From: a virus
Length of the DNA stretch: 64,000 bases
Virus record (IMG/VR): IMGVR_UViG_3300030116_004830
Location: 23,651-87,650 of that record
Direction: 5' to 3' (one strand)
The position numbers were made by a program, and so were the translations under genes. Every line of letters begins with the position of its first letter. The stretch's first letter is position 1. The notes beneath the pieces were generated by a model. It searched no databases, was not told where the DNA came from, and saw only the letters and a list, made by a program, of their open reading frames with translations. This document shows, piece after piece, positions 29,500 through 51,476 of the stretch.

Positions 29500-30987
29500 T
29501 TAGAGTTGTCCCTCCAATCTTTCAACTAGAGCGTTAATGTCGCTCCAATCCATCTTTGCGATTTCGTCACCATTAGGAATGTTAAGTTCTGCAACTGCTT
29601 CTTCTTGCTTACGAATTACAGTTTCTTCTTCTGCCTTTAGATTGTTAAGAAGGTCAGCGAATTGCTTTCTCAACTCAGTTACTTCTGCCTTAGCATCGTA
29701 GTTTGCCTTCTCAATTTCCTCGGTCTTAGCAACCATTTCAGAATTGAATCTTGCTTGGAATCCTTCCTTTACTTTATCAAAAGCCATCTTCTCAAGTTGT
29801 TCTGCCTTGAATTCAGCGTAAGCCTTCTCCAAGTTTTCAGCAGATAGGTCAAGAGTAGTTTGGTCTTCAAACTTAGCCATGTATTTGCTGTCCAATTGTG
29901 GATGAGCATCATCTACATATTCACCAGCGTTTCCTGCTTCTACTTGACCAGTAGCCAAATCAGGCTTTGACTTTCTTTCGGTATCCATGTATTCTCCACC
30001 CATACCTTTTTCGTCCATCATCTCTTTATCAGGCATATTAGGATTCATTGCTTCAACATCCTCTTCTGCGTTTTCAATTTCTTCTTCTTCTTTAGCAACC
30101 ATTTCTGTTCCCTCGGATGTTTTCTGATTTTTCTCTATGTTCTTATTAACGTTTTCTGCTGAATCCGTGTTTTCCATATCTTTCATAGCATTAAATTGGT
30201 CAACCATTTGTCTTAGTTCATCCTTTTCCATAATGCCTCTACCTAATACTCTTTCATATGGAGCCATCTCTACTTTACCAGTAGTGTTTTCCATATCTTC
30301 TTTCATAGCGTCAATTACATCTTTCTTCTTGTAATCCCCGCTAGTCAATACTTCAAGGTATTGCATTTTTACTACGCTTTCATTATTGTATGCGGAATTT
30401 GCCGCATCCAACGTCTTGTTCAGTTCTTCTAGTGCTTTGCTTATTGCATTCATTTTATCACCTTTATCCATTTTTAGTATATCGAATTTTGCTTCAGGGT
30501 TAATACCCTTTTCACAAATCGTTACTTCATGGAGTTCTAATTTGGAGATTTCATTGTATTCTCCGTATTCTTTGTGGGTCTTCTTTCTCTTTTCTAAGGC
30601 TTGACCCCCAATACTAAATGAGCGTAGAGAACCATCTCTGATTTCTCTACCAACCTCTTTTGCCTTTTCAATATCTTCTCTCATCTTAATGACGACAAAG
30701 AATCCAACATCGTCTACTTCTGTCTTGTAGAGTTTACCTGTCTTATCTCTGTAACTAGGAATAACTTCTCCTACTTGAACATTAGAATGATTAGTCATTA
30801 CGTTTCTAAACTTCGTAATTTTCATGTATTTGTTTACTGCTTCTTGTAGTGCATCAAGAGTAATAAGGTCGTTTTGCTTATCTACCATTTCAATAGAAGC
30901 ATAACCTCCAATGACTAAGTTATTGGATTTAAGGATGGTAAAGGGGTCATTTCTAATAGCGTTGATAGAAGTGACCGCACTACCCAT
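29500..30987 (-). CDS. Prohead protease fused to a scaffold domain
   Basis: IGGYAS..VDKQND, NHSN (His), SFSIGG (Ser), LHEVTIC; acidic coiled-coil C-terminus. Start placed at MGSAV. Confidence 0.9.
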   Translation of the reverse strand: MGSAVTSINAIRNDPFTILKSNNLVIGGYASIEMVDKQNDLITLDALQEAVNKYMKITKFRNVMTNHSNVQVGEVIPSYRDKTGKLYKTEVDDVGFFVVIKMREDIEKAKEVGREIRDGSLRSFSIGGQALEKRKKTHKEYGEYNEISKLELHEVTICEKGINPEAKFDILKMDKGDKMNAISKALEELNKTLDAANSAYNNESVVKMQYLEVLTSGDYKKKDVIDAMKEDMENTTGKVEMAPYERVLGRGIMEKDELRQMVDQFNAMKDMENTDSAENVNKNIEKNQKTSEGTEMVAKEEEEIENAEEDVEAMNPNMPDKEMMDEKGMGGEYMDTERKSKPDLATGQVEAGNAGEYVDDAHPQLDSKYMAKFEDQTTLDLSAENLEKAYAEFKAEQLEKMAFDKVKEGFQARFNSEMVAKTEEIEKANYDAKAEVTELRKQFADLLNNLKAEEETVIRKQEEAVAELNIPNGDEIAKMDWSDINALVERLEGQL

Positions 30988-31010
30988 GCGTGATACTTTT
31001 TTCACAATTT

Positions 31011-31023
31011 CTATATTAGGTTT
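31011..31023 (-). promoter_or_regulatory. Putative TATA-like promoter AAACCTAATATAG
   Basis: About 25 nt upstream of the protease ATG, i.e. archaeal spacing for a leaderless start. Confidence 0.5.
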
Positions 31024-31025
31024 GC

Positions 31026-33509
31026 CTAGAATTTTAATTTAGAATCCTTATCTTCTCTAATATCCCATAGTCCGTCATCAGTTTCAGGGTCCACAGGTTT
31101 CTGTTCTATTCCAGTCCAAGCAAGCCACTTATCTTCGCCCTTTATCGGTATAACTCTAACATGAAATTTAGTATCGAATTTATTTCCAGTTAAAATGTAT
31201 TCATGATAACCATGACGCTGAACCCCTAACTCTACTTTTCCTGAATCTATGAGTTTACCCGTTTCTATTTTCGTTACAACTTGTGCAGGGTATTTGCCTG
31301 ATTTACCGAATAGAGTAAAGATGTCGTCTTCGTTTTCTATCTCTATATCCCAACCAATAGTTTCGTCTGATAATTTGAATAAGATAGAAAGATGACCGTT
31401 ATCTTTGTAGTAGATTTTGAAATCACCATTACGGTATTCATCAGGGGTTTTATATTTTGATTTTAAAATGTCCTTTTCTAAAATATCAGGTTCAGCAAAA
31501 AATAATTTCTCTTCTTCATTGTAACCAATGTCTTCTAGATTCTTTAGATAATTCTTCAATCTTGTAGGTTTACTATCAAAGATATTGTTGTAAGGGGTTT
31601 TCTGTTTCTCATTAACGAACTGTTCTATCTTAGAAAACGGAGATTCGCCATTCTCTAAAAGATAATTTCTTATTGATACTCTAAATGCTCCCTTTTCTCT
31701 TTTAATCAGTTCTTCTATTTCTGTTTTCCAAACGTCAATATCAAGTAATGCATTCTTAGCCATTATATTATTTTCTTCAAAACCATAGAAAGTAAACCCA
31801 TCTAAATCAGATTTAATGATAGCAGTAGCATCACCATGAATAGTATCGCTTATACGAAATCCTTTCTCTAATGCTTCTATATCATAATTAAGAGATTTCT
31901 TAGTATCTTGAGATAATAGGTCTAAAGTGATTAATTTTTCAGGAAGTTCAACTTCGGGTATTTCTATTACTTTAGCCGAAAAGAGCGTGTATCCCTTTTC
32001 GTTTTTCTTTACTTCATCTATCTTTACACGAATAATACTTCCAACTTCAACATCTATTTTTGTATTTAACGCCTTACCAACATTAAGATATTCTCTATCG
32101 TTAATTGTCTTAGTGTCCGAATAATTATCTTTATCTGTTAATGGTCCTGCCCCTAAAGTATAGGTAAACATATTTGATTTAGTGGTTTTCTTATCTAAAA
32201 CCATCATATCTAAATCTACAAACTTTTTCCATTTAATCCATTTAGGGTTTTTCTTAGTTCCTATAAAGTAAGTGGAAGTTACATCTTTTATTACTACCCC
32301 TTCAGCAGTAGGAATCTCCATAATTTCTTTTGCATATTCTTCCACTTCTTTCACAGAATCAGCATAACGAGTATCCTTCTTAGAAGGGAACGCTAACTTT
32401 TCATGGGAATGTGTAGAATAATTATTGAATAGAATAGTCATTCTTTCTATGAGTTCTTTCTCATGTAACTCCTCACTTTCATGTCGCATTATGTCGAACA
32501 CATGCGCTCTTAATTCTGTATCAGATTTTTTGTCCTTAAAAATTCTAGCAACTACCTCTGCTCGGTGTAGGGCTTCCTTACCTTTGAATAATAGAAGTTC
32601 AGCATCGAGGATACAATCTCCAAAATGCTTGGCTTTCATCACCTTAACTTGTTCAGGACATTTCTTGGTAATGTCCTTACCGTTGAAAGAAAATATCTTG
32701 ATTTGATTATCTATCTTATGAATTTGAATTCTCATTCCATCATACTTTTCTTGGACTACCCATTTACCAGTAAATCCTCTTAACTGTTCTAAGTCATCAA
32801 TATCGAATATACGATACATCGGTTTGTTAGGAACCAAGAAATGTTCTTCCGCCTTCATCGCCTTTTCTAGGCTAACCGTCTTATCCCAATTTTTACGGCT
32901 ATGATGGTTCACAAATATTTCTTCTAACAATTTCTTAGCGCCTAAATATTTACCTTTGATTCTTTTTGTGTCTTTATCGTCACCATAATGTTCGACCACA
33001 AAATCTAGAATATCCTTTTCAGCAAGGTTTAGTCCCTTGAATCCCTCTGTAATACTATCGGGTTCCAAATCATTCTTTTCCCATGCCTCATCACTAAGGG
33101 CTTTATCGTGGTTTCTCATAGCCCAGTGAATAAATTTAGCAAATAGAGATTCGTTTTCTATTAGTTCATCTAATACATCTTCACCATATTTAGTAGAGAA
33201 TGGGTCCTTTACAATACCCGATGAATATCTCAATTCTTTAACTTGAGAATATATTTTTCTAGCATCATCACTTTCTACGTTTTCTGCCTCATCAGAGAAC
33301 AGTTCCTTTTCATTAATTATTTCTTTAATCTCTTTACTGAACTCATCAATGTCGTCCCATTGTTCTCTAAGTGTTTTAATTTCGCCTATCCATTTATCGC
33401 CGTATCTTTTCTTATCTGATAAAGCAGACAAGTAAGACATTCTCATTTTTTCAAAGAATTGAATTACTCTAAGGGTTAGAGGGTCATCTTTGATAACGGA
33501 AACAGGCAC
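31026..33509 (-). CDS. lig: ATP-dependent DNA ligase with extra N- and C-terminal domains
   Basis: Motif I QEKYDGMR, III ILDAEL, IIIa HVFDIM, IV EGVVIK, V WIKWK, plus OB fold. C-terminal domain resembles a degenerate LigD phosphoesterase. Confidence 0.9.
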   Translation of the reverse strand: MPVSVIKDDPLTLRVIQFFEKMRMSYLSALSDKKRYGDKWIGEIKTLREQWDDIDEFSKEIKEIINEKELFSDEAENVESDDARKIYSQVKELRYSSGIVKDPFSTKYGEDVLDELIENESLFAKFIHWAMRNHDKALSDEAWEKNDLEPDSITEGFKGLNLAEKDILDFVVEHYGDDKDTKRIKGKYLGAKKLLEEIFVNHHSRKNWDKTVSLEKAMKAEEHFLVPNKPMYRIFDIDDLEQLRGFTGKWVVQEKYDGMRIQIHKIDNQIKIFSFNGKDITKKCPEQVKVMKAKHFGDCILDAELLLFKGKEALHRAEVVARIFKDKKSDTELRAHVFDIMRHESEELHEKELIERMTILFNNYSTHSHEKLAFPSKKDTRYADSVKEVEEYAKEIMEIPTAEGVVIKDVTSTYFIGTKKNPKWIKWKKFVDLDMMVLDKKTTKSNMFTYTLGAGPLTDKDNYSDTKTINDREYLNVGKALNTKIDVEVGSIIRVKIDEVKKNEKGYTLFSAKVIEIPEVELPEKLITLDLLSQDTKKSLNYDIEALEKGFRISDTIHGDATAIIKSDLDGFTFYGFEENNIMAKNALLDIDVWKTEIEELIKREKGAFRVSIRNYLLENGESPFSKIEQFVNEKQKTPYNNIFDSKPTRLKNYLKNLEDIGYNEEEKLFFAEPDILEKDILKSKYKTPDEYRNGDFKIYYKDNGHLSILFKLSDETIGWDIEIENEDDIFTLFGKSGKYPAQVVTKIETGKLIDSGKVELGVQRHGYHEYILTGNKFDTKFHVRVIPIKGEDKWLAWTGIEQKPVDPETDDGLWDIREDKDSKLKF

Positions 33510-33519
33510 ACAGAATCAC

Positions 33520-33705
33520 CTACTTCTTTTTGTTAGCCCCTGCGTAATGCCTTTTACCAGCCTTTACGCTTTGGCCTTTAGCCTCATCAGAAAGATGACC
33601 TACTCCCAAGGGCTTAGTTTTATCCTTTTCACCTTTGGTTCTCTTGAGTTTCATTTCTTCGCCAATGACGAATTTCATTAGTTTTTCAGTGTATTCAGTG
33701 GTCAT
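33520..33705 (-). CDS. Small basic hypothetical protein
   Basis: In-operon ORF. Confidence 0.55.
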   Translation of the reverse strand: MTTEYTEKLMKFVIGEEMKLKRTKGEKDKTKPLGVGHLSDEAKGQSVKAGKRHYAGANKKK

Positions 33706-34082
33706 TTTGGTCCCTCCTTTATTGCTATTGCTTCAATTCCGTCAAAACTTGTATTTCTAATAGTCCAGCCTTCAGCACGATATATATCGGAAATTATTTG
33801 AAGAATGTATGACCTATTCCGACCGAGTTTATCTTGCCCGTCTTGTCCCATAAGATAAAATGGAGAATTGTTATTGGACAATCCCGTTTTATCTGCTGGT
33901 TCATTTCTAAAACCAATATATGTTTCTTTTCCTTCTAGCGCTGGTTGCGCTTGAACCAACGCTACTAATTTAGGTTCAATTACTGATTTCTCATACTCAG
34001 TAATCGCTTGTTTATGGTCTTCATCTCTAGCGGTCCTAGTGCCTAGGGGCATAGGCATTTTCAAAATATCTTTCCAATTCAT
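33702..34082 (-). CDS. Hypothetical protein with N-terminal MNWKDILK tag
   Basis: Shared N-terminal motif; GGAG RBS. Confidence 0.7.
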   Translation of the reverse strand: MNWKDILKMPMPLGTRTARDEDHKQAITEYEKSVIEPKLVALVQAQPALEGKETYIGFRNEPADKTGLSNNNSPFYLMGQDGQDKLGRNRSYILQIISDIYRAEGWTIRNTSFDGIEAIAIKEGPK

Positions 34083-34083
34083 T

Positions 34084-34320
34084 TTACTCTCCTCCTAATC
34101 TTGCTACTAAGTCATTAATTTCATCCCAACTCATCTTAGCAATTGTATCTGAATCAGGAACATCACTATGAGTTCTGATTGCAGGAGTTGGCGAGTCCAC
34201 AGTAACAATACCCGACTTAACTAAGATATTATCATTGTTATAAACTGTATTTTCTATTTTCTTAATTCTACCTACTAATTCCTTTAGCAGGTCTACCATT
34301 TCATTATTCTCTTCCGTCAT
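34084..34320 (-). CDS. Small protein whose C-terminus mimics the scaffold C-terminus
   Basis: VPDSDTIAKMSWDEINDLVARL versus scaffold IPNGDEIAKMDWSDINALVERL. Confidence 0.7.
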   Translation of the reverse strand: MTEENNEMVDLLKELVGRIKKIENTVYNNDNILVKSGIVTVDSPTPAIRTHSDVPDSDTIAKMSWDEINDLVARLGGE

Positions 34321-34661
34321 TATTCATCATCCCTTAAACTTCTAGCGCTCTTTGGATATACTACTTTTCTTACTTGGCGATACAACTGTTCGTATTGCTT
34401 ACGAAGTTTGCTGGCAGTAGCGACCATATCAACATTCTGTTCACTGATGGACTTTACTTTCTTTTGTAGTTTAGAGTCATCCTTCACCAAATCTAGTTCA
34501 CTCATCATATCAATGAGTTCTCCTAACTTGGTAAAATCCTGACCAAAATACTCTGTAGGTTCAGCCGCTTGGAGTGTCTTTTTGAGTTTCTTTTTCTTCT
34601 TAGAATCAAGAGCATTGAGGATTTTGCTTTCCTCTTTGATTAGCATATCTTCCCAAGTCAT
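34320..34661 (-). CDS. Hypothetical protein with MTWEDMLIK tag
   Basis: Shared N-terminal motif. Confidence 0.7.
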   Translation of the reverse strand: MTWEDMLIKEESKILNALDSKKKKKLKKTLQAAEPTEYFGQDFTKLGELIDMMSELDLVKDDSKLQKKVKSISEQNVDMVATASKLRKQYEQLYRQVRKVVYPKSARSLRDDE

Positions 34662-34662
34662 A

Positions 34663-35313
34663 TTAATCCCTATATCCTAATGACCTTGCATTTGCGGCAA
34701 ATCTATGACCCGCCATTTCTCCTCTAAACTCCCTTTGTTCTTCTTCGGACATATCGCCCCAATCTTCTTCATATTGAGCATATTCCTTGAAGGCCTTCAA
34801 AATAGCCTGAACAAAATCTCTTACGCCCTGTCTACTATTATCCCATCCTTTGAGGTCAATCTTAACATCAATTTTCTTTTTGCCTCCTTGGGTAGCCAAC
34901 TCAATATCATGTATCTTGAAACTATTAATAGCGAGTCGACCATAATCAGGATTTCTTGGATTATAGTATAAATCATAATTATCGGGCAAATACCTGATAG
35001 TCATTTTATCTGAACCAAAACCTTGACGATAAGCATAAGGTTCATCCATATCGGTAATAATTAATTCGTGGCCAAAGGTTTCTTGTCCATAAGAGCCGTC
35101 ATAATCTTCCATTTCTTCATCAGACAAAGTAGTAAATTCTCGATATTTCATTTTCTTCTTATCTTTTTCAGTCATCCAAGACATATTCTCATAGTGGTCG
35201 CTATATTTAATCTCAAAACCTAATGCCTCTAAACTACTAATTACTTGGTCGCCAAATTCACTAATCTTCATATTGCTTAAATTGTCGTATTTCAAAATAT
35301 CTTTCCAACTCAT
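34663..35313 (-). CDS. Hypothetical protein with MSWKDILK tag
   Basis: Start reassigned to the tag Met after GAGGTG. Confidence 0.7.
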   Translation of the reverse strand: MSWKDILKYDNLSNMKISEFGDQVISSLEALGFEIKYSDHYENMSWMTEKDKKKMKYREFTTLSDEEMEDYDGSYGQETFGHELIITDMDEPYAYRQGFGSDKMTIRYLPDNYDLYYNPRNPDYGRLAINSFKIHDIELATQGGKKKIDVKIDLKGWDNSRQGVRDFVQAILKAFKEYAQYEEDWGDMSEEEQREFRGEMAGHRFAANARSLGYRD

Positions 35314-35314
35314 T

Positions 35315-35635
35315 TTAAGCACCTCTATATCTATAATCATAACTGTAATTATCCGACTCTTTATCTGATTGAACTCTTCTTAAATTCTTTTTAGATAAGA
35401 AAAACCATGAAGATGCATTCATATTTCCATCCATATTTCCTTCATCTATCCCTAATGGTTTAGCAATTTCTCTTGCTATTTTCCAACTTGTTCTAGGTAA
35501 AACAAAATCTACTTTCTCTTCAGGATATTGTTCCCGATACTTTTCAGAAACAACTTTCACACCATTTTTTGATTTTTTCCATGCTTCACGAATAGCATCA
35601 TAATCGTTACTTTTTAGTATATCTTCCCAAGTCAT
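35315..35635 (-). CDS. Hypothetical protein with MTWEDILK tag
   Basis: Shared N-terminal motif. Confidence 0.7.
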   Translation of the reverse strand: MTWEDILKSNDYDAIREAWKKSKNGVKVVSEKYREQYPEEKVDFVLPRTSWKIAREIAKPLGIDEGNMDGNMNASSWFFLSKKNLRRVQSDKESDNYSYDYRYRGA

Positions 35636-35636
35636 T

Positions 35637-36716
35637 TTAATTTCTCCTAATTGTTTTACCTGCCATTAAATCCTCTAACTCTTGTCTTTCCCTTTCTGCT
35701 TGGGCTTCTCTTTCTTCAAAGGTTAGACCTTCTTCTTGTCTAGAGGGTCTTTCGGTTTCTCTTTCTTCAATGGCCCTTCTCATTGCCGCATCTTCAGCAG
35801 TTGCTAAATCCATAAGAACATCTCTTCCTCTTGTAGTAACCATATACCAAATATCATTTCTTGCATTTAGAATATCTCTCTGCTGTTTAATATCCGCCAA
35901 GGTTACACCAGTGTTTTGTGAATAAGCATAAAGTAAAGCATCAATAAAAGGCTCTTTGATTCTACCCTTTGTATGATGATTAAATTCAATAGGTTCATTC
36001 AAAAGATTGTAAACTTTTTGTCTCAATTTCTTAATATCAGATTGAGGCATACGAGCAGTTTTTTCTGCATATATAGGTGATGCCGTTTCTCTAAGTTCAG
36101 CAACATCGTATTTATTCTTAATAACTTCAGATAGGTTTCTTTCAAATCTATCATCGTGAATAAAATCTCCATCGAAATCTAATTTAGCATCTTGTAATGC
36201 ATCCCTAAGTTCAGTTAATTTATCAATTCCCCTTTCTAGTTGTTTATCTTCCTTAACCCTAGAAAAGGTAGCGCCTTTCCCTGCTCCCTGTGTAACCTTT
36301 TGTTTGGGAGTTTTCTGAGAATCCATAATATCAGATAGTAAATCTTGAAGCCCCGTCATAATTGGTTTCATGATAGTAGGTTCAATTTCACTCCCTTTGA
36401 TAGCATTAAGCAATGCTCTAACATTAGATTCTCTTACACTAGCAAAATAAGGGTCATTACTTTGTTTACCCTCTTTTATTCCTAGTAGCAGTGACTTTGG
36501 GGAACCCAGTTTATTCATATCAGTTTCACTGTCTAGTAGATTTTCAATAGCAGTAAATAATTGATTAGACATCTTAGGTTGATTAGTCCTTTGCATACTC
36601 TGAAGAAGTTCTCTCCAAGATTTACCGTCCTGTTTTAGAATATCTTCTAAATAGCACTTCAACATAATGAACGGGTCATTAGTTTTCAGAAGTTTTGCCT
36701 TTAGAAGTGTTCCCAT
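35637..36716 (-). CDS. Hypothetical head-module protein (359 aa)
   Basis: LLKA / LLKT / DILK motifs near the N-terminus; helical and charged. Confidence 0.6.
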   Translation of the reverse strand: MGTLLKAKLLKTNDPFIMLKCYLEDILKQDGKSWRELLQSMQRTNQPKMSNQLFTAIENLLDSETDMNKLGSPKSLLLGIKEGKQSNDPYFASVRESNVRALLNAIKGSEIEPTIMKPIMTGLQDLLSDIMDSQKTPKQKVTQGAGKGATFSRVKEDKQLERGIDKLTELRDALQDAKLDFDGDFIHDDRFERNLSEVIKNKYDVAELRETASPIYAEKTARMPQSDIKKLRQKVYNLLNEPIEFNHHTKGRIKEPFIDALLYAYSQNTGVTLADIKQQRDILNARNDIWYMVTTRGRDVLMDLATAEDAAMRRAIEERETERPSRQEEGLTFEEREAQAERERQELEDLMAGKTIRRN

Positions 36717-36725
36717 GTTATCGCC

Positions 36726-36956
36726 TCAAAAGAACGGAATGTTTTCTTTCTTTAGTTTCTTTCTCTTAGGATTATGAATAACATTAGGAACATCAGCAGT
36801 TTTAGGTTCAGGCCTATCCTTTTCCTTCTTTAGTTGCATAGGAGTTAGAACAGGTTTCGACTCTCTTGCTTTTTCTTTCTGCGCTAGAATCCTTTCGGCC
36901 CTAACAAGTTCCTTTCTCATTTTATTTGTTTCTTCTCTTGTAACCATATTATTCAC
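36726..36956 (-). CDS. Small basic hypothetical protein
   Basis: In-operon ORF. Confidence 0.55.
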   Translation of the reverse strand: MNNMVTREETNKMRKELVRAERILAQKEKARESKPVLTPMQLKKEKDRPEPKTADVPNVIHNPKRKKLKKENIPFF

Positions 36957-37144
36957 CTATTTGCTATTTTTTCCATCATATCTATTAATTCGCCTTCTAA
37001 TTCAGGGGCAGAATAATGTCTTTCTAACAATTTATTCATAGCCATCATTTTCAATTTCTCATATTTAGGTAAATGCATCAATTCAGAATCTAATTCACCA
37101 ACATAATCAAATTTCTCTTTCTTTATTACATCTTCCCAATTCAT
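36953..37144 (-). CDS. Hypothetical protein with MNWEDVIK tag
   Basis: Shared N-terminal motif. Confidence 0.65.
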   Translation of the reverse strand: MNWEDVIKKEKFDYVGELDSELMHLPKYEKLKMMAMNKLLERHYSAPELEGELIDMMEKIANR

Positions 37145-37145
37145 A

Positions 37146-38804
37146 TCATCCAACTCTCCTTTCAGTCCTTCTATCTACGTTATTGTTAGCCGCTTCCTTG
37201 GGTAAGCCTGTAGCCCGATTAGGTGGCCCTACACTCATCTTAGGTTTAGGACTTGCGCCTTTTACCTTAGCAGGTTGCCCTGCTTGTTCCATTGTTGGTT
37301 TAGTTCCAGCCTCCATCATTTGACCTAATTGTGATTGGTCAATATCTGTTCCCGCATAAGGGTCAGATTCAAACTTTTCATCTTCTGATTGTCCTTCTCC
37401 TTCTGCTTCGGGTTGGGGTTCAGGTTTCTTGTAAATGAACTTACCATTTTCATCCATATCAACTTCAAATCCTAAATTTTTAATTTGACCAGCAATATTA
37501 ACTTCAATTTCTCTTTTTCTCATTTTAGCAATTTCATCCTCTTCTTCGGAAGGTGGTAGAATTATATCCCAGTCAGTAATACCGAACTGCTTAATCACAA
37601 ACGGGAACACATATTTGTTCCATACATTTTGAGCCATTTCTACAGCCCTATTGGTAACAAGTATTTGCATACCTTCATTGTTTAATCCACCACTGGTAGA
37701 ATTATCCGCCATGAAGATTTTACTTACACCATAGAAAGCGGCGACTCTATCTCTCAAATCTTCCTTAACAGAAATATAATCCATTTCCTTTAGAGAATCC
37801 ATGAACTTAACCCATTCAACAGAACCTCTACCGTTTTCTGCTTCTATTCCCATTACAGGAATAAAGTGAGCATCCTGTTCCATCTTTTCTTTAACGCCTC
37901 TCCAAAAGGTCTTCATCGAATCTATGTTTCTTGTTTGAACAGCCAGTAAACCTCTAGGCATTCTAGCCTTTGTATATGCTTGATTAATATAATTCTCCAT
38001 AGCAATTAATGTAGTTAGATGATTAAACATTGTAATGACTGGACTAGTTCCATAGAGCCTACTTGGTTTATATTTGCTAAAGTGTAAAACCTCTCCTTTA
38101 ATGAAATTCTGAGCCTCCCCATGTCCTCTGTTTACATAATGAACAGGATACAAATCTCCTCCACATTCCCCACATTTCTCATGAGGATTATCTGCCATTA
38201 CATGTCTATGGTGTAAACAAGTAAACGATGAAGCCCCTTTGTTACCATCATCATCACAAGTAATAGCCATAGTAACTGGGTCGCCACGATACATTTCTTT
38301 GATTCTATGCGCTCTAATATTTCCATTACCATCAATGAAATATTCCTTGACTAGAACTAAGTAAGCATCATCCATAATATTGAGGTCATCTTCTAATTCC
38401 TTTAGAACATCAATAAACATCTGTTCCGATTGATTAACATAACTACTGCCCATGAATTTATTAGCATACAATTTTTGTTTCATATCAGGTTTTCTTAAAT
38501 TAGTAGAACCGCAATTTGCACATTCATTAGTTGTCTCTTCGTGTTCATGTCCACAATCATTACACTTTACTGCAAATCTAGGACTCCACTCATAGCCTCT
38601 TCTAAAAATTTCATTCTTTAATTGAGTAATACAAGTCCTAAGAATAACTGAACTATCAGCAATATGATAGATGATAGGTCCAGTCATCTGCAAAGGATGA
38701 TGTCTTTCTTGTATCCCCATTTGGTAAACTTCTCTATCAGCAGGAACAGGAGTTGTTCTCCTAAAGAAATTAGTAATAGAAAATCTTCTTTTTTCTTCTA
38801 CCAT
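37146..38804 (-). CDS. Portal protein with zinc-ribbon insertions
   Basis: GEVLHF..YKP..LYGTSP, MPRGLL and RVAAFYGV portal motifs; CxxC pairs (CNDC/CANC, CLHH/CGEC). Confidence 0.85.
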   Translation of the reverse strand: MVEEKRRFSITNFFRRTTPVPADREVYQMGIQERHHPLQMTGPIIYHIADSSVILRTCITQLKNEIFRRGYEWSPRFAVKCNDCGHEHEETTNECANCGSTNLRKPDMKQKLYANKFMGSSYVNQSEQMFIDVLKELEDDLNIMDDAYLVLVKEYFIDGNGNIRAHRIKEMYRGDPVTMAITCDDDGNKGASSFTCLHHRHVMADNPHEKCGECGGDLYPVHYVNRGHGEAQNFIKGEVLHFSKYKPSRLYGTSPVITMFNHLTTLIAMENYINQAYTKARMPRGLLAVQTRNIDSMKTFWRGVKEKMEQDAHFIPVMGIEAENGRGSVEWVKFMDSLKEMDYISVKEDLRDRVAAFYGVSKIFMADNSTSGGLNNEGMQILVTNRAVEMAQNVWNKYVFPFVIKQFGITDWDIILPPSEEEDEIAKMRKREIEVNIAGQIKNLGFEVDMDENGKFIYKKPEPQPEAEGEGQSEDEKFESDPYAGTDIDQSQLGQMMEAGTKPTMEQAGQPAKVKGASPKPKMSVGPPNRATGLPKEAANNNVDRRTERRVG

Positions 38805-40177
38805 TATTCCTCACTCCCTTTGGATATGACGCTTCCTATATTTTCTAATTCATCCATAACACTCATTTTATTATTCTCCTTATACTTAGCGATATTTTCC
38901 ACATCTATGTCGTCCTTTGAAAAATCATAATTAACGTGGTCGGCATGATTAGCCCACTTCATTAACTTGAATAACTCCGACATTCTTTCTTTGGCCCAAG
39001 GTTCCTTCTTATGATTTTTCTTAATTCTAATCAATTCAGTTAGAATATCAGCGTTCTCCCCTTTCATTCTAAAGTAGGGGCGACATTTGCTTAATAATTT
39101 AGTAATATCATCTTGGGAATAAAAATTCAATCTTTGAACGGCCCTAGTTGCCTGTGGAGATTTTTGGTCGAGATGTAATTTTCCACAACCTAATTCCTTA
39201 TGGAGTTCAGTAACGAATGCTTTGCCTCTATTACCTGTAGCAATAATACCAATTCTAGGATTATAGTTTCTATCCATCGTGATATACCCGTCCGAATCAA
39301 TAAATGCCGCAGTATAAGCATGAAGGTCTTTGATAATAGCATCGGGTAATTTATACAATTCACCTTCGATATTAGTGATTCCCAACCTTTGCGCCCTTTT
39401 AGCAATAATTTGAGGAGATGCCCTTCGATGTAATTTATTGGGTAATTTCTCATAAACTAATCTAGAAGAAATACTTGGGTTTTCACATACCTGTTTTAGA
39501 ATATTATCATCTAACTGTTTAGAGATATTATTTTTGATAGTATGATTTGGAATATCAGTTACTAGTTTTCTAAATTCCTTTTTGGCATTAGTCATTGTTT
39601 TTGTTAATGAAGAATATTCAGAATTGTAATTATCTCCTCTATGTAATTCGGCTTCCCAATATTTACACAAAGCATCTATTACCTCTCTTCTTGTATCTAA
39701 ATCCTTAACTGAATGAAGTTTCTTTAAATCATTCTCAGTATATCGCATGTTTCTTAATGGGGTTTCATATGGAGATAACCAATAAATAGATTTGATACAA
39801 TTACTTAGATGATTACCATACTGAACGATTAGATTATCAATGCCTTTCGTGAAATTTATTTTTTCTTCACCCTTTAGGGTTCTCCTATGTTTTTTTAATT
39901 CTTTAACAATATCAGGTATCGTTTTATTTTCGATGACGTATTGTTTTGGAAAAGTATCTAATTTTGCTTTAGCCTCTGTGATATTGATGTTGTATTTTTT
40001 CGATACACTCATAGCGGCTTCATAATCGCTCATTACAGGTAAAGTGGAAATCCATTTTTGTGCTTCCATTTGTTCTTTGATAGATTGCTTACGGTCTTCT
40101 AATTCGGCTAACTCCTCATGTTGTCTTGCCTGTTCTCGGAGTTTATCTCCCTCTTCACTTTTAGAAATTAAGCCCAA
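38804..40177 (-). CDS. Free-standing LAGLIDADG-domain protein with a long helical N-terminus
   Basis: AYTAAFIDSDGYI motif followed by an endonuclease-type sequence. Start placed at TTG 40177 after GGAGGTG. Confidence 0.75.
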   Translation of the reverse strand: MGLISKSEEGDKLREQARQHEELAELEDRKQSIKEQMEAQKWISTLPVMSDYEAAMSVSKKYNINITEAKAKLDTFPKQYVIENKTIPDIVKELKKHRRTLKGEEKINFTKGIDNLIVQYGNHLSNCIKSIYWLSPYETPLRNMRYTENDLKKLHSVKDLDTRREVIDALCKYWEAELHRGDNYNSEYSSLTKTMTNAKKEFRKLVTDIPNHTIKNNISKQLDDNILKQVCENPSISSRLVYEKLPNKLHRRASPQIIAKRAQRLGITNIEGELYKLPDAIIKDLHAYTAAFIDSDGYITMDRNYNPRIGIIATGNRGKAFVTELHKELGCGKLHLDQKSPQATRAVQRLNFYSQDDITKLLSKCRPYFRMKGENADILTELIRIKKNHKKEPWAKERMSELFKLMKWANHADHVNYDFSKDDIDVENIAKYKENNKMSVMDELENIGSVISKGSEE

Positions 40178-41612: not shown

Positions 41613-42223
41613 AAATCACACTTATACACATACTTCGCCCAAACATAAGCAAAGGACTTTTTCATATCCCCACTATCTCGATAATAAATTGGATACTTTA
41701 CTGATTTTAATTTCTTCTTAACGTCTTCAGGAAGATTAGCAGTTTCCTCAACATAAGGAACAAACCCTAAACCTCTCCACATTGGTATGAGTCCTTTATT
41801 CGCAACACTAAGAATCATAGGTTTATCCGTATATTTACCAATGACCTGTTCATATATCTCAGACCAACCTCGATTTACCTTTATTCCATCTACTTCTCTT
41901 GATGGAACTTTATCTTTAGAAAACATTTCTTCGTTAGCGATTGACCTTGCTCCACCACCTGCATAAAAATCACCGTAATCAGTAACGGCTTGGACGGCTA
42001 CAGGTTTATCTCCTTCACCAGTTTTACTTGAACGAATATTTACATGAAAATCAGTATTACCTGCTCCAAACAATCTAAAGAAAGTAGTATTTCTATCTGC
42101 TCTTGTAGGAAATATATCACTAGGGCTTGGTTTTCTTCCAAGCAATTCTTCAAATGATTCAGCCCATGCATCAAAAAACATTTTTTGAACGGACTGTTCG
42201 TTTGTTATTACTTGGATAGCCAA
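41609..42223 (-). CDS. Hypothetical protein, possible GNAT fold
   Basis: LSVANKGLIPMWRGLGF resembles the GNAT C-terminal N..A..Y..LGF motif. Confidence 0.4.
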   Translation of the reverse strand: MAIQVITNEQSVQKMFFDAWAESFEELLGRKPSPSDIFPTRADRNTTFFRLFGAGNTDFHVNIRSSKTGEGDKPVAVQAVTDYGDFYAGGGARSIANEEMFSKDKVPSREVDGIKVNRGWSEIYEQVIGKYTDKPMILSVANKGLIPMWRGLGFVPYVEETANLPEDVKKKLKSVKYPIYYRDSGDMKKSFAYVWAKYVYKCDL

Positions 42224-42228
42224 TTACA

Positions 42229-42516
42229 TCACCATAGTTTCTTACAGGCTAAACATTTAGGTGTAGTAATTCTCCCTTTACATTGGTCGCAATTGTGTCT
42301 TGCTCTAAAGTTGGCTCTCCTTTTAGGATTCTTATGAGTCCCACCGCCACGATTTTTACCTTTGCGTTTGTAATTACCATATCCTTTAGCACCAGCATGA
42401 ATCTTTTTACCTTCATGTGTTAACATCATAATTTTCTTACCAGCCCTATCACTAGGATATACACGACCTACACGCATATCCTTCTTATCTTTCTTTAGAA
42501 CTTCTTCCCAACTCAT
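42229..42516 (-). CDS. Basic protein of the KIHxGAKGY...KRRxxFRARH family (DUF5754-like) with MSWEEVLK tag
   Basis: Motif recalled from marine phage and giant-virus proteins. Confidence 0.65.
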   Translation of the reverse strand: MSWEEVLKKDKKDMRVGRVYPSDRAGKKIMMLTHEGKKIHAGAKGYGNYKRKGKNRGGGTHKNPKRRANFRARHNCDQCKGRITTPKCLACKKLW

Positions 42517-42518
42517 AT

Positions 42519-42722
42519 CTATACCCCAGTATGAATGTCCTTTAGCATTTTAATTGCAGTTTGAATTTTTACTGTATCTTTTCTAGACATACTTATGCGT
42601 GTTGATTCTAAATACTCAATAACCTTTTTAATGTCTTCACCGATTTCTTCAACCTGTTCCATATAAGATTCCCCATAAAAATAAGGGTCCCTTTCAAATT
42701 TGATTATATCTTGCCAACTCAT
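42519..42722 (-). CDS. MSWQDIIK-tagged protein, paralog A
   Basis: Similar to 43039-43218. Confidence 0.7.
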   Translation of the reverse strand: MSWQDIIKFERDPYFYGESYMEQVEEIGEDIKKVIEYLESTRISMSRKDTVKIQTAIKMLKDIHTGV

Positions 42723-42727
42723 TCTAA

Positions 42728-43036
42728 TCACTTCCATTCTAATCGTATATCACCATCAGCAAATTTCACTAATTCGTGTGGTTGTAACATCCCTGCAATT
42801 GAGAGTCCATCATCATTAATCATCTTAATTTCGTTATCAGAAAGGTTGGCATCAATAATATCAGTAACCTCAATTTTGATTTTATCCATATTTTCTTTGC
42901 GTTGTTCAAATGAAAATTCCCATTTAACTATTGCTTTACCTGATTCTAATCTTGTTTGTAAATTGATATATTCAACCTCTGTCTCAAACGCAAAGGTTTG
43001 TAGTCCTGATTGTTTGATTAGATTTTCCCAACTCAT
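42728..43036 (-). CDS. MSWENLIK-tagged protein
   Basis: Shared N-terminal motif. Confidence 0.7.
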   Translation of the reverse strand: MSWENLIKQSGLQTFAFETEVEYINLQTRLESGKAIVKWEFSFEQRKENMDKIKIEVTDIIDANLSDNEIKMINDDGLSIAGMLQPHELVKFADGDIRLEWK

Positions 43037-43038
43037 AT

Positions 43039-43218
43039 CTATACCTTCGTATCTATTTTCTCTAACATATCAATTGCAGTAGGTGAACTATCAGGATGCC
43101 TTCTTAATAATTCAATGACTTTTTCAATATCTTCTGCAATTCGTTCAATTTGCCTAACATAAGATTTTCCATCAGAATAGGGGTTTCTTTCAAATTTAAC
43201 TATATCTTCCCATTTCAT
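43039..43218 (-). CDS. MKWEDIVK-tagged protein, paralog B
   Basis: Similar to 42519-42722. Confidence 0.7.
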   Translation of the reverse strand: MKWEDIVKFERNPYSDGKSYVRQIERIAEDIEKVIELLRRHPDSSPTAIDMLEKIDTKV

Positions 43219-43223
43219 TAAAA

Positions 43224-43574
43224 TCACCTCCTTGGTTTATGAGTATAAATATCTCCATCACTGTGCATGAAAATTACTTTCTTTCTTTTCATAGCATTAA
43301 GGATTCTTTCTAAATCTTTTTTCGGAGCGATAGCCTTTAGGTTCTTCATCCCCAATGCTCCACCTTCCTTTTTAATTTCAGCAAGGATTTCTTTCTCAAT
43401 ATCTGAATCGCTTTTTACCGCCTTCTTTTCATCCCTAAGCATCTTGAAATCTTTTCCGCTAATTTTTCCATCACCATCAGCATCAATTTCTTTTTGATTA
43501 CCCGTTAGTGTCTTTTCTTCATCATCTGTTTTTCCTGTCGTGCAATGTATCTTCAATACGTCTTCCCAACTCAT
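43224..43574 (-). CDS. MSWEDVLK-tagged protein with an EF-hand-like loop
   Basis: DADGDGKISGKDF. Confidence 0.7.
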   Translation of the reverse strand: MSWEDVLKIHCTTGKTDDEEKTLTGNQKEIDADGDGKISGKDFKMLRDEKKAVKSDSDIEKEILAEIKKEGGALGMKNLKAIAPKKDLERILNAMKRKKVIFMHSDGDIYTHKPRR

Positions 43575-43976
43575 TTATTGTTCACCTCTTTCTTGGTTTT
43601 CCTTTGACCTCTTATCGTCCGTTATTGGGCCACCCTTCGCCCAAGTATAACAAGTTCTCGCTGAATGGCATTTGAAATGATGCATCCAACAATAACCTAA
43701 ACGACCGTCATCATCTAATTCTAAGGGCATACAATCTTCCATTCTAGGAGAAATATCAAACGCTACACAATTACTACAGTTAGATTTCTTTGCTACCTCC
43801 GCAGTAGTATTCCATCTCTTAGCATACCTTTCCCAATAATCTTCATCATTTAGATTAAGAGGACCATATTGAATGTGTTCAGCCTTAACTGCACTATCTC
43901 TATTTTTAGTGTTTAACTTCAAATCTTGAGTTGCTCTGGGACAAGCCATTTCCTTTAGAATAATTTCCCAACCCAT
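43575..43976 (-). CDS. MGWEIILK-tagged Cys-rich protein
   Basis: CPRATQD, CSNC, GYCWMHHFKC, RTC motifs. Confidence 0.7.
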   Translation of the reverse strand: MGWEIILKEMACPRATQDLKLNTKNRDSAVKAEHIQYGPLNLNDEDYWERYAKRWNTTAEVAKKSNCSNCVAFDISPRMEDCMPLELDDDGRLGYCWMHHFKCHSARTCYTWAKGGPITDDKRSKENQERGEQ

Positions 43977-44075
43977 TTTATTCCTCCTTTCTTTGCCCAA
44001 TAGATTGTAACCTTTTAGTTACAGAATCTATATCGGTAATTTTTTTTCTAAACCTTTTATGTCTAGATACCCAAT

Positions 44076-44471
44076 TCATGCACCTTTCCTCCTTTTGTAA
44101 GTTTTACATGCGGCACAAGTAGGTCTACACCTCTGTTTAGTTCCCTTAGAAGCGTCCTTTCTACCACAAGGTTTTGTTCCTTTCTTATCATCTTCACATG
44201 ACTGGCAGGAAACCCAACCTTTCTGACCTCCACCGCCTCTTCTTGAGAACCATCCATGAAGACCTTCTTTCTTTTCTCTTGCGAAATTGTCTCCACCTTT
44301 CAGGGCTTCTTCCCATGATTTCTTAGTAGATTTTCCCCAATTGGCCGCACCTACCTTTCTACACTGAACCAATGCTCCACTAGCATAAGCCGATGGCCAC
44401 TTTTTATATCGGCTTCTTACCTTATGATAACAGGCATCTTTTTTTGCCTTCAGTGTTTCTTCCCATAACAT
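44076..44471 (-). CDS. Tagged basic Cys-rich protein (DUF5872-like, WPSAYASGALVxCRK)
   Basis: Two tagged halves: MLWEETLK and internal KSWEEALK. Confidence 0.7.
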   Translation of the reverse strand: MLWEETLKAKKDACYHKVRSRYKKWPSAYASGALVQCRKVGAANWGKSTKKSWEEALKGGDNFAREKKEGLHGWFSRRGGGGQKGWVSCQSCEDDKKGTKPCGRKDASKGTKQRCRPTCAACKTYKRRKGA

Positions 44472-44476
44472 CTTAA

Positions 44477-44758
44477 TCACGCTACATAGTAAAGATTAGG
44501 TTCTCCTTTCTTTTCAAACATTTTACACATGCCTTTTGTATCAATATCTATTTCTGATAACGTGCATTGGTAATTTGAATTATGTTTACAGGATGTAGCC
44601 TCACATCTTCTAACTTTACAGTCCTTTCCACCAAATCCTGTTTTTTCGGGAGGTTTTCTATATCCGCCTTGTTGTTCCATTAAAGCCCTTTTTGACCTTT
44701 CCTTGATTCCACCATGTAGGTATTTATCCTTGGGATGCAATTGTTCCTTCCAACTCAT
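44477..44758 (-). CDS. Tagged protein with a DUF1540-like Cys motif
   Basis: MSWKEQL; CEATSCKHN...C...I...C. Confidence 0.6.
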   Translation of the reverse strand: MSWKEQLHPKDKYLHGGIKERSKRALMEQQGGYRKPPEKTGFGGKDCKVRRCEATSCKHNSNYQCTLSEIDIDTKGMCKMFEKKGEPNLYYVA

Positions 44759-44763
44759 TTTAA

Positions 44764-49562: not shown

Positions 49563-50221
49563 TGTAATTGCTCCTGCATCTTACTCTTAATGTCCAACCA
49601 AACTTGAGGATGCTGTTGTGCTAATACCTCTTGAACGACTTGCATTTGATGAACGATAATTGTATCTTGTCTTTTGTGAACCAACTGTCCCTTGAACTCC
49701 AACATATACTTCAATGATTCACGAATCTCTTTTGCTAGTTTCGTCAAACTATCAATATATTTTGGATTGAGGTCATCCTCTTGAAACAACAATTCAATCT
49801 TTTCTTCAAGACGATGAATATTTACCGACAACAAATCAATTTCATTCAAATCTCTTTTCATGATTTCCATTGCCGCAGATTGTTGAACTAGCGGCTTCAA
49901 GTGTTTATTCATGTGTTTCATGACTTGTTGACGACTAATTCCTAAATCCGCCGCAACGGTTGAAGGTGAAATCTCTCCTTCATGGATAGCCATCTCTAGA
50001 GTTTTTCTTTCAGGACTAACGCATAACGCACATTTAGGATTTGATTGGTCGGTATAATCTGTATCCATGTGGTTTCTCAAATGTCTGGCAGTAACTCCAC
50101 TAGTCCATCCCATTTCTTCATCAAGTTCATCAGGAGTAATTTGTTTTGAAGAAAGCCTTTCCTCTAATTGGTCCCTATCGGGATGTTGGCAGAGTTTACA
50201 GTGCTTTCTTGTTTTAGCCAT
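49559..50221 (-). CDS. Probable terminase small subunit
   Basis: Two tandem CxxC-HTH-HxxxH repeats plus a C-terminal coiled coil; upstream of terL. Confidence 0.55.
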   Translation of the reverse strand: MAKTRKHCKLCQHPDRDQLEERLSSKQITPDELDEEMGWTSGVTARHLRNHMDTDYTDQSNPKCALCVSPERKTLEMAIHEGEISPSTVAADLGISRQQVMKHMNKHLKPLVQQSAAMEIMKRDLNEIDLLSVNIHRLEEKIELLFQEDDLNPKYIDSLTKLAKEIRESLKYMLEFKGQLVHKRQDTIIVHQMQVVQEVLAQQHPQVWLDIKSKMQEQLQ

Positions 50222-50225
50222 TCAA

Positions 50226-51476
50226 TCAGCCCCACAAACCATCAGTCCAACTTTTCTTAATCTTTGAATTAGCCACTGCCTGTTCATGCTTTGATGACCA
50301 AGGCTGACCAGTAACCTTTCTTCCACCACCTGCCGATGAAAGCATAAGTGGTTTACTATTAGGAGGTAGATGAGGCGGAACGATAAAATCTTGACGAACA
50401 AACATGTTAATCAAACGGTTAATGGTAGCATCAGTAAATTTAATCTTAAATTCCTTTACATCATCCATTCCTGTAACATCTTTTAGATAAGGAGCAATCG
50501 AAGTCAAATATCTTTGAGTTTGTTTCTGTTGACCTTTGAATGGGAAATTGTTCAATTGAGTAGTAATACCTCTAGCACCACCATACATCAATTGATGGCC
50601 CCCACCACGATACGAATTACTATTACTCAAAATCTTTCTAATTTCTCTTATCAATTGAGGCAGTTTGGATAATGCATCTACCTTATTAGCAAAATCTCCT
50701 TTATCATTAATGATAATCTCTTGAATAAAGGCTCCATCCAATGCCTTTTTGAAATCTTGAAGAATGGCTAAAAGTCCCTTTTCAATAGTATCTCCTTTTC
50801 CTCCATTTTTCACTCCTTCTGCCCCTGCGTAAAATGCTTGCCAAAAGGGAGGCTTTGCTTGATTTTTTCCACCATCACCTTCTTCATACCAAGAAGATTT
50901 CACGGGACCTTGTTCATTTTCACTATCATGAACATCTGTTCTAGACCTAACATAAATCGGAGTTCGATAATGACCATAAACAACTTCTTCACCAATATCG
51001 GCCATTTTACCTTTTACTTTACCAACATCCAATGGTTGAGTAAAAAAGATGTTTCTTGGGTCATCGTCTGTTCCCTCCATTTTCTCTAAATCGTTTATCA
51101 AATCAAGAATATCTTGTTCATCATCTTCATCTATCAAAGATTGTTCATCCAAAATAACAGAATCTAGCAATTCCACGATGGCTTTTCCTTTATCTCTTGG
51201 AGTTCTGTTCGGTCTTACTACTCTAGCAGTAACATGGTCTTCTACATGTTGCAATAAGGTGTCGCTACCTGCGCTTCCATCTTTCTTATGACCTCTACCA
51301 GTAACTCCAATATCTGCCAATGTTAATCCTCGACATTCATTCTTCCACTTCGTATATTGTCTTTGAATAGTTCCAATCTCTTCGCCTAATTCTTGGTCAA
51401 TTAGTGCATTCTTAAACTGAATCATTCTTTTCTTCTTAACTGGTGGGGCCTTCAATAGCGTATTTACCCAATTCAT
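50226..51476 (-). CDS. Hypothetical protein with MNWVNTLLKA tag
   Basis: Tag-like motifs at both ends (C-terminal KKSWTDGLWG). Confidence 0.6.
   Translation of the reverse strand: MNWVNTLLKAPPVKKKRMIQFKNALIDQELGEEIGTIQRQYTKWKNECRGLTLADIGVTGRGHKKDGSAGSDTLLQHVEDHVTARVVRPNRTPRDKGKAIVELLDSVILDEQSLIDEDDEQDILDLINDLEKMEGTDDDPRNIFFTQPLDVGKVKGKMADIGEEVVYGHYRTPIYVRSRTDVHDSENEQGPVKSSWYEEGDGGKNQAKPPFWQAFYAGAEGVKNGGKGDTIEKGLLAILQDFKKALDGAFIQEIIINDKGDFANKVDALSKLPQLIREIRKILSNSNSYRGGGHQLMYGGARGITTQLNNFPFKGQQKQTQRYLTSIAPYLKDVTGMDDVKEFKIKFTDATINRLINMFVRQDFIVPPHLPPNSKPLMLSSAGGGRKVTGQPWSSKHEQAVANSKIKKSWTDGLWG

Follow-up and report, generated by a model that had tools for sequence, protein, structure and literature searches.

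Fourteen genes of a marine archaeal virus open with the same short peptide: a candidate capsid-loading tag that resembles a scaffold tail

Why should a series of small genes in one virus, most of them unrelated to one another, all begin with the same eight residues? The question was raised by a window of 64,000 bp (here the whole stretch of DNA analyzed, bases 23651-87650 of the 87,650-bp IMG/VR virus record IMGVR_UViG_3300030116_004830, which is estimated to be 96% complete). Fourteen genes on the minus strand of this window open with an 8-residue tag, M-x-W-x-x-[IV]-[LI]-K, which is degenerate in two of them. An earlier note on this DNA had listed the 14 N-termini and proposed that they dock proteins inside the procapsid and are then cut after the final Lys; all 14 were found at starts of open reading frames (ORFs) on the minus strand. 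The tag was found to be a peptide module, and its core recurs at the C-termini of the prohead protease-scaffold and of a small core protein. The favored explanation, held with slightly better than even confidence on the sequence evidence, is a tag for capsid loading and protease release of swappable cargo, similar to the capsid targeting sequence (CTS) of phage T4.

For comparison, a set of 80 related IMG/VR loci with portal identities of 66-94% was used. The tagged genes of the window are the following, the higher coordinate being the start of the ORF.

50226..51476, minus strand: 416-residue protein, degenerate 9-residue leader MNWVNTLLK followed by APP; 2 homologues in the 80 loci
44477..44758, minus strand: 93-residue protein, degenerate tag MSWKEQLH, Cys-rich DUF1540-like motif
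44076..44471, minus strand: 131-residue protein, tag MLWEETLK, internal relic tag SWEEALK between two domains
43575..43976, minus strand: 133-residue protein, tag MGWEIILK, Cys/His-rich; tag pattern in 14 of 17 homologues
43224..43574, minus strand: 116-residue protein, tag MSWEDVLK; tag helix, flexible linker, EF-hand-like loop and winged-helix-like C-terminal domain
43039..43218, minus strand: 59-residue protein, tag MKWEDIVK; first of three cassettes missing in the nearest relative
42728..43036, minus strand: 102-residue protein, tag MSWENLIK; second of the three extra cassettes
42519..42722, minus strand: 67-residue protein, tag MSWQDIIK, paralogue of the 59-residue protein; third extra cassette
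42229..42516, minus strand: 95-residue protein, tag MSWEEVLK, basic DUF5754 zinc-ribbon-like body
36953..37144, minus strand: 63-residue protein, tag MNWEDVIK, directly after the portal gene
35315..35635, minus strand: 106-residue protein, tag MTWEDILK
34663..35313, minus strand: 216-residue protein, tag MSWKDILK; homologue in none of the 80 loci
34320..34661, minus strand: 113-residue core protein, tag MTWEDMLIK, coiled coil with a Lys-rich stretch; in 77 of the 80 loci
33702..34082, minus strand: 126-residue protein, tag MNWKDILK

The strict pattern.W[EKQ][DEN][ILVM][ILVM]K was matched 10 times in the six frames of the entire 87,650-bp genome, compared to a mean of 0.12 in shuffled genomes. 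All 10 matches sit directly after the start Met on the gene strand, and none was found by this six-frame scan in the replication module, the tail module or the palindrome-joined cassette region. The tagged proteins had been described as unrelated proteins of the head module. Unrelated they mostly are, except that the 59- and 67-residue proteins are paralogues and the 131- and 95-residue proteins have a DUF5754-like domain in common, and they belong to the head module by gene position, and by gene position only.

The census of related genomes that had been proposed resulted in 339 tagged ORFs on the gene strand of the 80 loci and none on the opposite strand, falling into about 131 sequence families. 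Family clustering was done by BLAST after removal of the first 10 residues; 347 tagged proteins of at least 35 residues, including the 14 of the window, gave 131 families, of which 76 were singletons. With one representative per family, positions 1-8 had an information content of 1.7-4.3 bits, and from position 9 onward it was 0.64 bits at most. The 4.3 bits of Met1, Trp3 and Lys8 arise by construction, as these residues are fixed by the search pattern with which the tags were collected (the collecting pattern). The tag is thus a sharply bounded module of eight residues, as the earlier note had it, with the information collapsing past Lys8 and with the consensus M-[STN]-W-[EFQK]-[DNEK]-[IV]-[LI]-K. 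Five complete relatives have 8-17 tags each, clustered upstream of the terminase and between portal and protease, and almost none elsewhere. An exact-pattern scan of IMG/VR identified at least 119 further stretches, nearly all of them with homologues of proteins of this genome.

Is it the peptide or the underlying DNA that is conserved? Across 127 family representatives the nucleotide information was found to track the codon structure. Position 2 of codon 7 carries 2.0 bits, this T being fixed by the collecting pattern, and positions 1 and 3 carry 0.20 and 0.33 bits; position 2 of codon 6, which is free in the collecting pattern, carries 1.52 bits, and position 1 of codon 4 carries 0.05 bits. 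Upstream of the tags only the ribosome-binding site (Shine-Dalgarno) and a TA dinucleotide are conserved. Except for the ribosome-binding site, no nucleotide conservation independent of codon position or reaching into non-coding DNA, as in promoter early stem-loop (PeSL) or attC-like elements, was seen among the 127 representatives. Conservation at the DNA level only, the outcome that the earlier note had set against its own proposal, is excluded by this codon-structured information, and as read from the aligned sequences selection acts on the peptide and not on the DNA.

The peptide is also independent of position. A stringent form of the motif gave 297 forward matches and 1 match in a reversed control. 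Among the 297 are 245 N-terminal copies, 10 at likely alternative start codons (apparently GTG or TTG), 34 internal copies and 5 at the extreme C-terminus. The C-terminal copies occur on proteins of up to 1152 residues, and a recurrent family among the internal copies has a domain of about 43 residues ahead of the tag. The high share of copies at start codons (245 of 297) would suit a signal that acts on translation initiation or, from the N-terminus, on stability (for example a downstream box, ribosome-tunnel peptide or N-degron). Such a signal is nevertheless extremely unlikely in view of the 34 internal and 5 C-terminal copies, the presence of the same peptide at the C-termini of two core proteins, and the free synonymous and first-position variation at the conserved Trp, Ile/Val, Leu and Lys; codon-structured conservation and the internal and C-terminal copies together rule out both a translation-initiation signal and a purely DNA-level motif.

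In two of the related loci, proteins of about 1100 residues encoded just past the portal gene (L015:12413-15868 and L018:12113-15382, both plus strand) have a tag-like peptide at the C-terminus, with 2-3 residues left before the stop codon. The gene that follows, a homologue of the 113-residue core protein, has lost its own tag in these loci, and it seems that in this lineage the tag has passed to the protein upstream.

Selection on the peptide does not mean that the DNA of the tag has no role. For the breakpoints, the window was compared with L010, the relative nearest to it, with a portal 94% identical. Relative to L010, the three cassettes at 43218-42517 form an insertion bounded by two tags; L010 has one hybrid tag, in which the upstream side is that of the first junction and the downstream side that of the second junction of the insertion. 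The 106-residue body (35315..35635) is replaced in L010 by unrelated sequence right after the same tag, and the 93-residue body (44477..44758) is replaced directly after the first ~10 nt of the tag. The 63-residue and 126-residue cassettes, both missing in L010, are whole-unit indels beginning at the ATG. Relatives are polymorphic behind a tag that is kept, with bodies swapped after it, and six of the 14 tagged proteins of the window have a homologue in none of the 80 loci. Tandem tags and the internal relic tag of the 131-residue protein also fit with recombination at the tag.

Since every cassette begins with the same ~24 nt, gain, loss and swap of cassettes could proceed by recombination at the tag. 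The location of the breakpoints at the tag points to a DNA-level role alongside the peptide role, and to judge from these alignments this recombination role is real, on top of the selection on the peptide. A more radical explanation would be that the conserved 24 nt are mainly a DNA-level recombination junction for cassettes, with the peptide as a passenger. The breakpoints in or at the tag (the three-cassette indel, the two replaced bodies and the two whole-cassette indels) speak for it, and so does codon 2, which is mostly AGT or one step off and suggests common descent of the segment. This explanation was found very improbable, however, because amino-acid class is conserved rather than nucleotide identity, no non-coding flank is conserved past the ribosome-binding site, the internal and C-terminal copies retain the peptide, and the same hexapeptide is present in the tails of two core proteins where there is no cassette junction. 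The exchange resembles that of PeSL cassettes in the hyperplastic regions of T4-type phages, where small accessory genes move as whole units and a short conserved element marks the breakpoints, but the element here is coding and constrained as a peptide, and is neither a promoter nor a stem-loop.

Where does the peptide come from? The tag had been noted to resemble the C-terminus of the scaffold, and two core genes are of interest in this regard.

29500..31005, minus strand: prohead protease (Peptidase_S78) with a long C-terminal extension, tail ..KMDWSDINALVERLEGQL
34084..34320, minus strand: 78-residue core protein, C-terminus ..AKMSWDEINDLVARLGGE, matching the protease-scaffold tail; in 77 of the 80 loci

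The ends quoted in the earlier note were both recovered: the protease-scaffold fusion (31005-29500) ends in ..AKMDWSDINALVERLEGQL, and the N-terminus of the capsid protein contains ..GGNNLLKAAG. The protease-scaffold and the 78-residue protein have the same C-terminal peptide, M-[SDEN]-W-x-[DEQ]-I-[NH]-x-[LM]-[VA], in essentially all related loci, which makes the 78-residue protein a candidate small scaffold. The hexapeptide M[STNDGKE]W.[DENSK][IV] was matched 378 times in 550,416 residues of gene-strand ORFs, and these matches consist of 220 standard tags, 70 tails of the 78-residue protein, 66 protease tails and 22 others, almost all of which are tag variants. The resemblance thus holds, as the core M-x-W-x-[DE]-I is otherwise confined to the C-termini of these two proteins.

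Shared C-terminal docking tails are known from lambda C/Nu3, from the HK97 protease tail and from herpesvirus UL26/UL26.5. In phage 80alpha, the scaffold and the SaPI1 protein CpmB have a common C-terminal motif (RIIK) that binds the capsid protein, and both compete for one site (PMC6893505). The situation is similar here in that two different head-module proteins, the maturation protease and the small 78-residue protein, end in the same peptide. It differs in that the core of the tail is reused as an N-terminal tag on more than 100 unrelated families, and the capsid binding is putative here. By analogy, the shared tail could serve for docking in the procapsid, its core having been borrowed for the tag. 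As a copy of the tail of protease and scaffold, the tag would most likely be a portable label that loads soluble, fast-changing proteins into the capsid.

An I-A-K sequence just before the M-x-W of the C-terminal tails was considered as a cleavage site and rejected, the Lys being unconserved beyond the closest clade. Complex prediction with the capsid protein (alignment A1) and the first 35 residues of the 116-residue protein (alignment A2) gave "no answer" (score 0.00; mark 0.32) and was used neither way.

The second half of the tag, two hydrophobic residues followed by Lys, has counterparts of another kind, for which three further genes are needed.

28114..29466, minus strand: major capsid protein, conserved 26-residue N-terminal segment ending G-N-x-L-L-K, followed by [SA]-A-G
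31026..33509, minus strand: 827-residue core protein with an ATP-dependent DNA ligase domain, leader VPVSVIK followed by DDP; upstream neighbor of the protease, in 76 of the 80 loci
35637..36716, minus strand: 359-residue protein, leader MGTLLK followed by A; more hydrophobic-Leu-Lys repeats within the first 30 residues

The N-terminus of the capsid protein reads M..YI.T..DLEAATYG...GN.LLK followed by [SA]AG in every orthologue, with L25 and K26 invariant (33 orthologues). In the protease, the N-terminus varies up to F-x-I-L-K and S, which are invariant and directly precede the catalytic domain; a second LLK is often present upstream. Short N-terminal segments ending in hydrophobic residues and Lys are also present in the 78-residue, 359-residue and ligase-domain proteins; as it starts with such a leader, the 827-residue ligase-domain protein may itself be located inside the head. 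In some loci the 113-residue core protein begins with another N-terminal extension, and in L038 it forms a fusion with a large protein from upstream. In these extended or fused forms the Trp is gone, and ..LLK followed by EES or ..ILK followed by AES is kept at the joint. HK97 protease is known to cut its capsid protein after a Lys, and from its sequence context the Lys end of the tag looks like a maturation site. Among solved structures, no usable relative of the capsid protein with a mapped maturation site was found.

Could the tag then be a pro-peptide only, recognized and cut so as to activate or mature the proteins, without any loading function? The hydrophobic-hydrophobic-Lys end is the sole feature common to the capsid and protease junctions and to both types of leader in these viruses (the second type is described below), and the extended or fused 113-residue forms keep just LLK or ILK. 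On the other hand, Trp3 and Ile6 are conserved as strongly as Lys8 (Trp3 and Lys8 being fixed by the collecting pattern), and the tags at the extreme C-terminus would free only 2-8 residues. Furthermore, prohead proteases of this family act inside procapsids, so that a substrate would need to be loaded anyway. A pure pro-peptide was therefore judged distinctly improbable.

A second magrovirus lineage (L212-L291), with a capsid protein about 40% identical, was used for comparison. Its proteins have a 12-residue leader, M-[TN]-[AP]-F-D-x-A-W-x-[LVI]-[LV]-K, which was found on at least 186 distinct proteins in 80 loci, with a median length of about 160 residues. The capsid protein of this lineage has [IL]LK followed by AD at the corresponding place. 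The comparison indicates that the hydrophobic-hydrophobic-Lys end is general, and that mimicry of the tail is peculiar to the 8-residue type.

Loading followed by release would proceed as follows. The front part of the tag, M-x-W-x-[DE]-I, would copy the tail shared by the protease-scaffold and the 78-residue protein, and a tagged protein would dock where that tail docks within the procapsid during assembly, the capsid protein being the most likely partner. The S78 prohead protease, which is of HK97 type, would then cut at the hydrophobic-hydrophobic-Lys end, as it would at the similar N-terminal sites of the capsid protein and of the protease itself. The cut would free the cargo within the head for delivery with the DNA, and the cargo would be a rapidly turning-over set of small soluble proteins.

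Several observations weigh against this explanation. Of the gene families within 10 kb of the portal, the tagged ones are the majority (123 vs 107), which makes a large cargo list, and 8-17 tags per genome is a large cargo for a capsid with about 90 kb of DNA. Triplets of the form [IVL][LIV]K seemed depleted in the tagged bodies when the redundant set was compared with shuffles (0.84 vs 1.23), but with one representative per family the ratio was 0.91 in tagged and 0.87-0.98 in untagged proteins, so no avoidance of the protease is seen. The Lys is retained in tags just 2-8 residues from a stop codon, and a binding residue explains this at least as well as a cleavage site. In the second lineage the protease tail, MSWD[DE]VH.LA, is unlike the leader of that lineage, and as the 12-residue leader does not resemble the scaffold tail, tail mimicry cannot be the whole mechanism.

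Some of these observations bear on an alternative in which the tag docks proteins on another hub (portal, terminase, scaffold or a host factor) for assembly or regulation of late-stage complexes, without packaging or injection. The motif acts as a position-independent short linear motif, no receptor for it came out of the analysis, many tagged families fit more easily outside a DNA-filled capsid, and the leader of the other lineage is unlike the scaffold tail. However, the core hexapeptide is found elsewhere in this lineage only on the prohead protease-scaffold and on the neighboring 78-residue protein, and the Lys end of the tag is shared with the conserved capsid and protease junctions. Both proteins with the hexapeptide tail would have to enter the procapsid, by analogy with HK97, lambda and herpesviruses and with 80alpha (PMC6893505). 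Docking on another hub was for these reasons considered unlikely. As to the interpretation given in the earlier note, the peptide module, its spread over about 131 families, the match to the tail and the Lys junctions all stand. Encapsidation, cleavage after the Lys and injection are inferred, and the interpretation has to be amended, since a DNA-level role coexists with the peptide role and tail mimicry is not general.

What kind of proteins would be loaded? The tagged proteins have a median length of 106 residues and are acidic or basic in about equal shares. A hydrophobic, transmembrane-like segment was predicted in only 2 of the 131 tagged families, and on this evidence the putative cargo is almost never a membrane protein. 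The recognizable pieces are Cys-rich DUF1540 and DUF5754 bodies, an EF-hand-like loop, a winged-helix-like domain and, in a relative, a soluble PAP2 phosphatase. Pfam scans of large tagged proteins, 20 of this lineage and 10 of the 12-residue-leader lineage, gave this PAP2 phosphatase as the single confident match. The large tagged proteins of 300-869 residues had no Pfam match, nor did the 10 largest proteins with the 12-residue leader, and a MuF/SPP1 gp7-like head-incorporation domain was absent from the Pfam scans of about 30 tagged proteins of this lineage. The PAP2 domain (E value 1.4e-12) is located in a tagged protein of 191 residues (L025:3144-3716, plus strand), which has no transmembrane segment and apparently intact catalytic motifs, and the protein is a candidate delivered enzyme.

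In the 131-residue protein of the window, PHROG matches begin at residue 8-9, immediately past the tag. Close homologues of the 95-residue protein have the tag directly before the DUF5754 body, whereas distant DUF5754 homologues from other sources begin otherwise and without a tag. The 116-residue protein has the tag in 18 of 18 homologues, and members of this family keep the N-terminal tag even where the EF-hand-like loop and C-terminal domain have been shuffled or have disappeared. In an AlphaFold2 model of this protein, the tag forms a helix (residues 3-11) followed by a disordered linker (residues 11-27) and a C-terminal domain with a predicted local distance difference test (pLDDT) score of 70-80. 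The top structural matches of this domain, a modeled winged helix, were Z-alpha domains binding Z-DNA and Z-RNA, with a template-modeling score to the target of ~0.79 and a weak E value of ~0.04; the likeness is only a lead. The model of the 133-residue protein was unusable (mean pLDDT 43). For the 416-residue protein (50226..51476) no Pfam or PHROG match was found; its C-terminus (window 50226-50260, minus strand), ..KKSWTDGLWG, is loosely like an S-W-x-D motif.

Among the closest known systems is that of T4. The T4 internal proteins are a diverse, polymorphic set with only the capsid targeting sequence in common; the CTS of IPI-III and Alt loads these proteins into the prohead core and is clipped off by the prohead protease, and they are injected along with the phage DNA (PMC3012670). 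The tag is alike in that a short N-terminal peptide is the sole common part of diverse and polymorphic small proteins. It is unlike the CTS in having no sequence similarity to it, in belonging to a virus of an archaeal host, in occurring internally and C-terminally as well, in being known from sequence alone and in its far larger repertoire (8-17 per genome and about 131 families in 80 loci). The proteases differ as well: T4 prohead protease, gp21, cuts after Glu, and the protease here is an HK97-type S78 enzyme with a proposed cut after Lys. Encapsulins offer another comparison, in which a short terminal cargo-loading peptide docks diverse cargo on the inner face of an HK97-fold shell. Encapsulins are without portal, terminase, protease and DNA, and their cargo is neither released nor injected, whereas portal, terminase, protease and capsid protein are all present here. 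In phage P1, a reporter is taken into capsids when it carries the first 30 residues of DarB, the signal being between 9 and 30 residues long (PMC9024508). The likeness to the tag is that N-terminal residues suffice to bring a foreign protein into the head of a tailed phage, one by which anti-restriction proteins are delivered, but the P1 signal has been demonstrated for DarB alone and not as a consensus of many proteins (PMC9024508).

The gene content and the relatives of the virus fit with a tailed archaeal virus of the magrovirus group, which would infect Marine Group II archaea; the host assignment is putative. The module was anchored by two untagged genes.

37146..38804, minus strand: portal protein, untagged
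40161..41612, minus strand: large terminase subunit, untagged

The best matches of the portal protein, at ~26% identity, were found in haloarchaeal tailed viruses (HVTV-1 and HCTV-5) and in methanogen viruses, and over 160 marine-metagenome contigs of IMG/VR have close relatives. From high to low coordinates, the minus strand starts with an HMGL-like enzyme, the 416-residue protein, a helix-turn-helix/HNH-like protein and large unknowns of 754 and 844 residues. Next come eight small tagged genes, a 204-residue protein, the large terminase, a 472-residue protein with an HNH-like region, and the portal. The 204-residue protein may be the small terminase. Downstream of the portal there is a mix of five tagged and several untagged genes, the conserved 78-residue protein being among the latter, and the module ends with the 827-residue DNA-ligase-domain protein, the Peptidase_S78 prohead protease with its long C-terminal extension, and the major capsid protein. 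The haloarchaeal relative HVTV-1 has the same gene order around the portal, yet it has neither the tag nor the shared tail.

Some neighboring genes and related contigs deserve mention in their own right. The HMGL-like enzyme (284 residues, window 51800-52654, minus strand; Pfam PF00682, E value 2.7e-25), marks the upstream end of the late strand; a metabolic gene of this kind is unusual in a tailed archaeal virus. The 472-residue protein with an HNH-like region (window 38804-40222, minus strand), between large terminase and portal, is conserved in 75 of the 80 loci and is on that ground a core gene of the packaging module and not a stray homing endonuclease; HVTV-1 has an HNH gene at the matching position. 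The one scan of a genome collection returned nothing but virus contigs in bins of bacterial genomes. Magrovirus-like contigs with capsid proteins 47-59% identical were found in bins of bacterial metagenome-assembled genomes (L209 and L210 in Maricaulis, L211 in Altibacter). These are almost certainly a binning artefact and no sign of a bacterial host.

The tag is not mentioned in the searchable magrovirus literature, and no paper describing it was found. On the favored explanation it would be a capsid-targeting-type tag in archaeal viruses, tied to an HK97-type protease and a scaffold tail and serving an unusually large mobile set of cargo. As far as could be found, this would be the first capsid-targeting system described for an archaeal virus, with a mechanistic link to the scaffold tail and the HK97-type protease. 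The breakpoints at the tag are a concrete example of a coding element that would both address a protein and promote the shuffling of genes.

Magroviruses are among the most abundant archaeal viruses of the surface ocean; their hosts are uncultured and most of their genes are unannotated. In its fullest form, the proposal is that an abundant order of oceanic archaeal viruses reuses the docking tail of its scaffold as an 8-residue label, by which an arsenal of effectors (more than 100 families, 8-17 per genome) is loaded and injected into Marine Group II archaea, with the 24 nt of the label serving as a recombination handle; this was given somewhat less than an even chance. If true, the tag would be a means to list the injected effectors of uncultured archaeal viruses from sequence only, a ready-made protein-loading tag and, for reconstitution, proteomics and protein encapsidation, an 8-residue handle amenable to experiment. 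If the tag does mark capsid cargo, much of the dark matter of magroviruses would fall into one functional class of proteins delivered with the genome, which would probably serve in host takeover or counter-defence.

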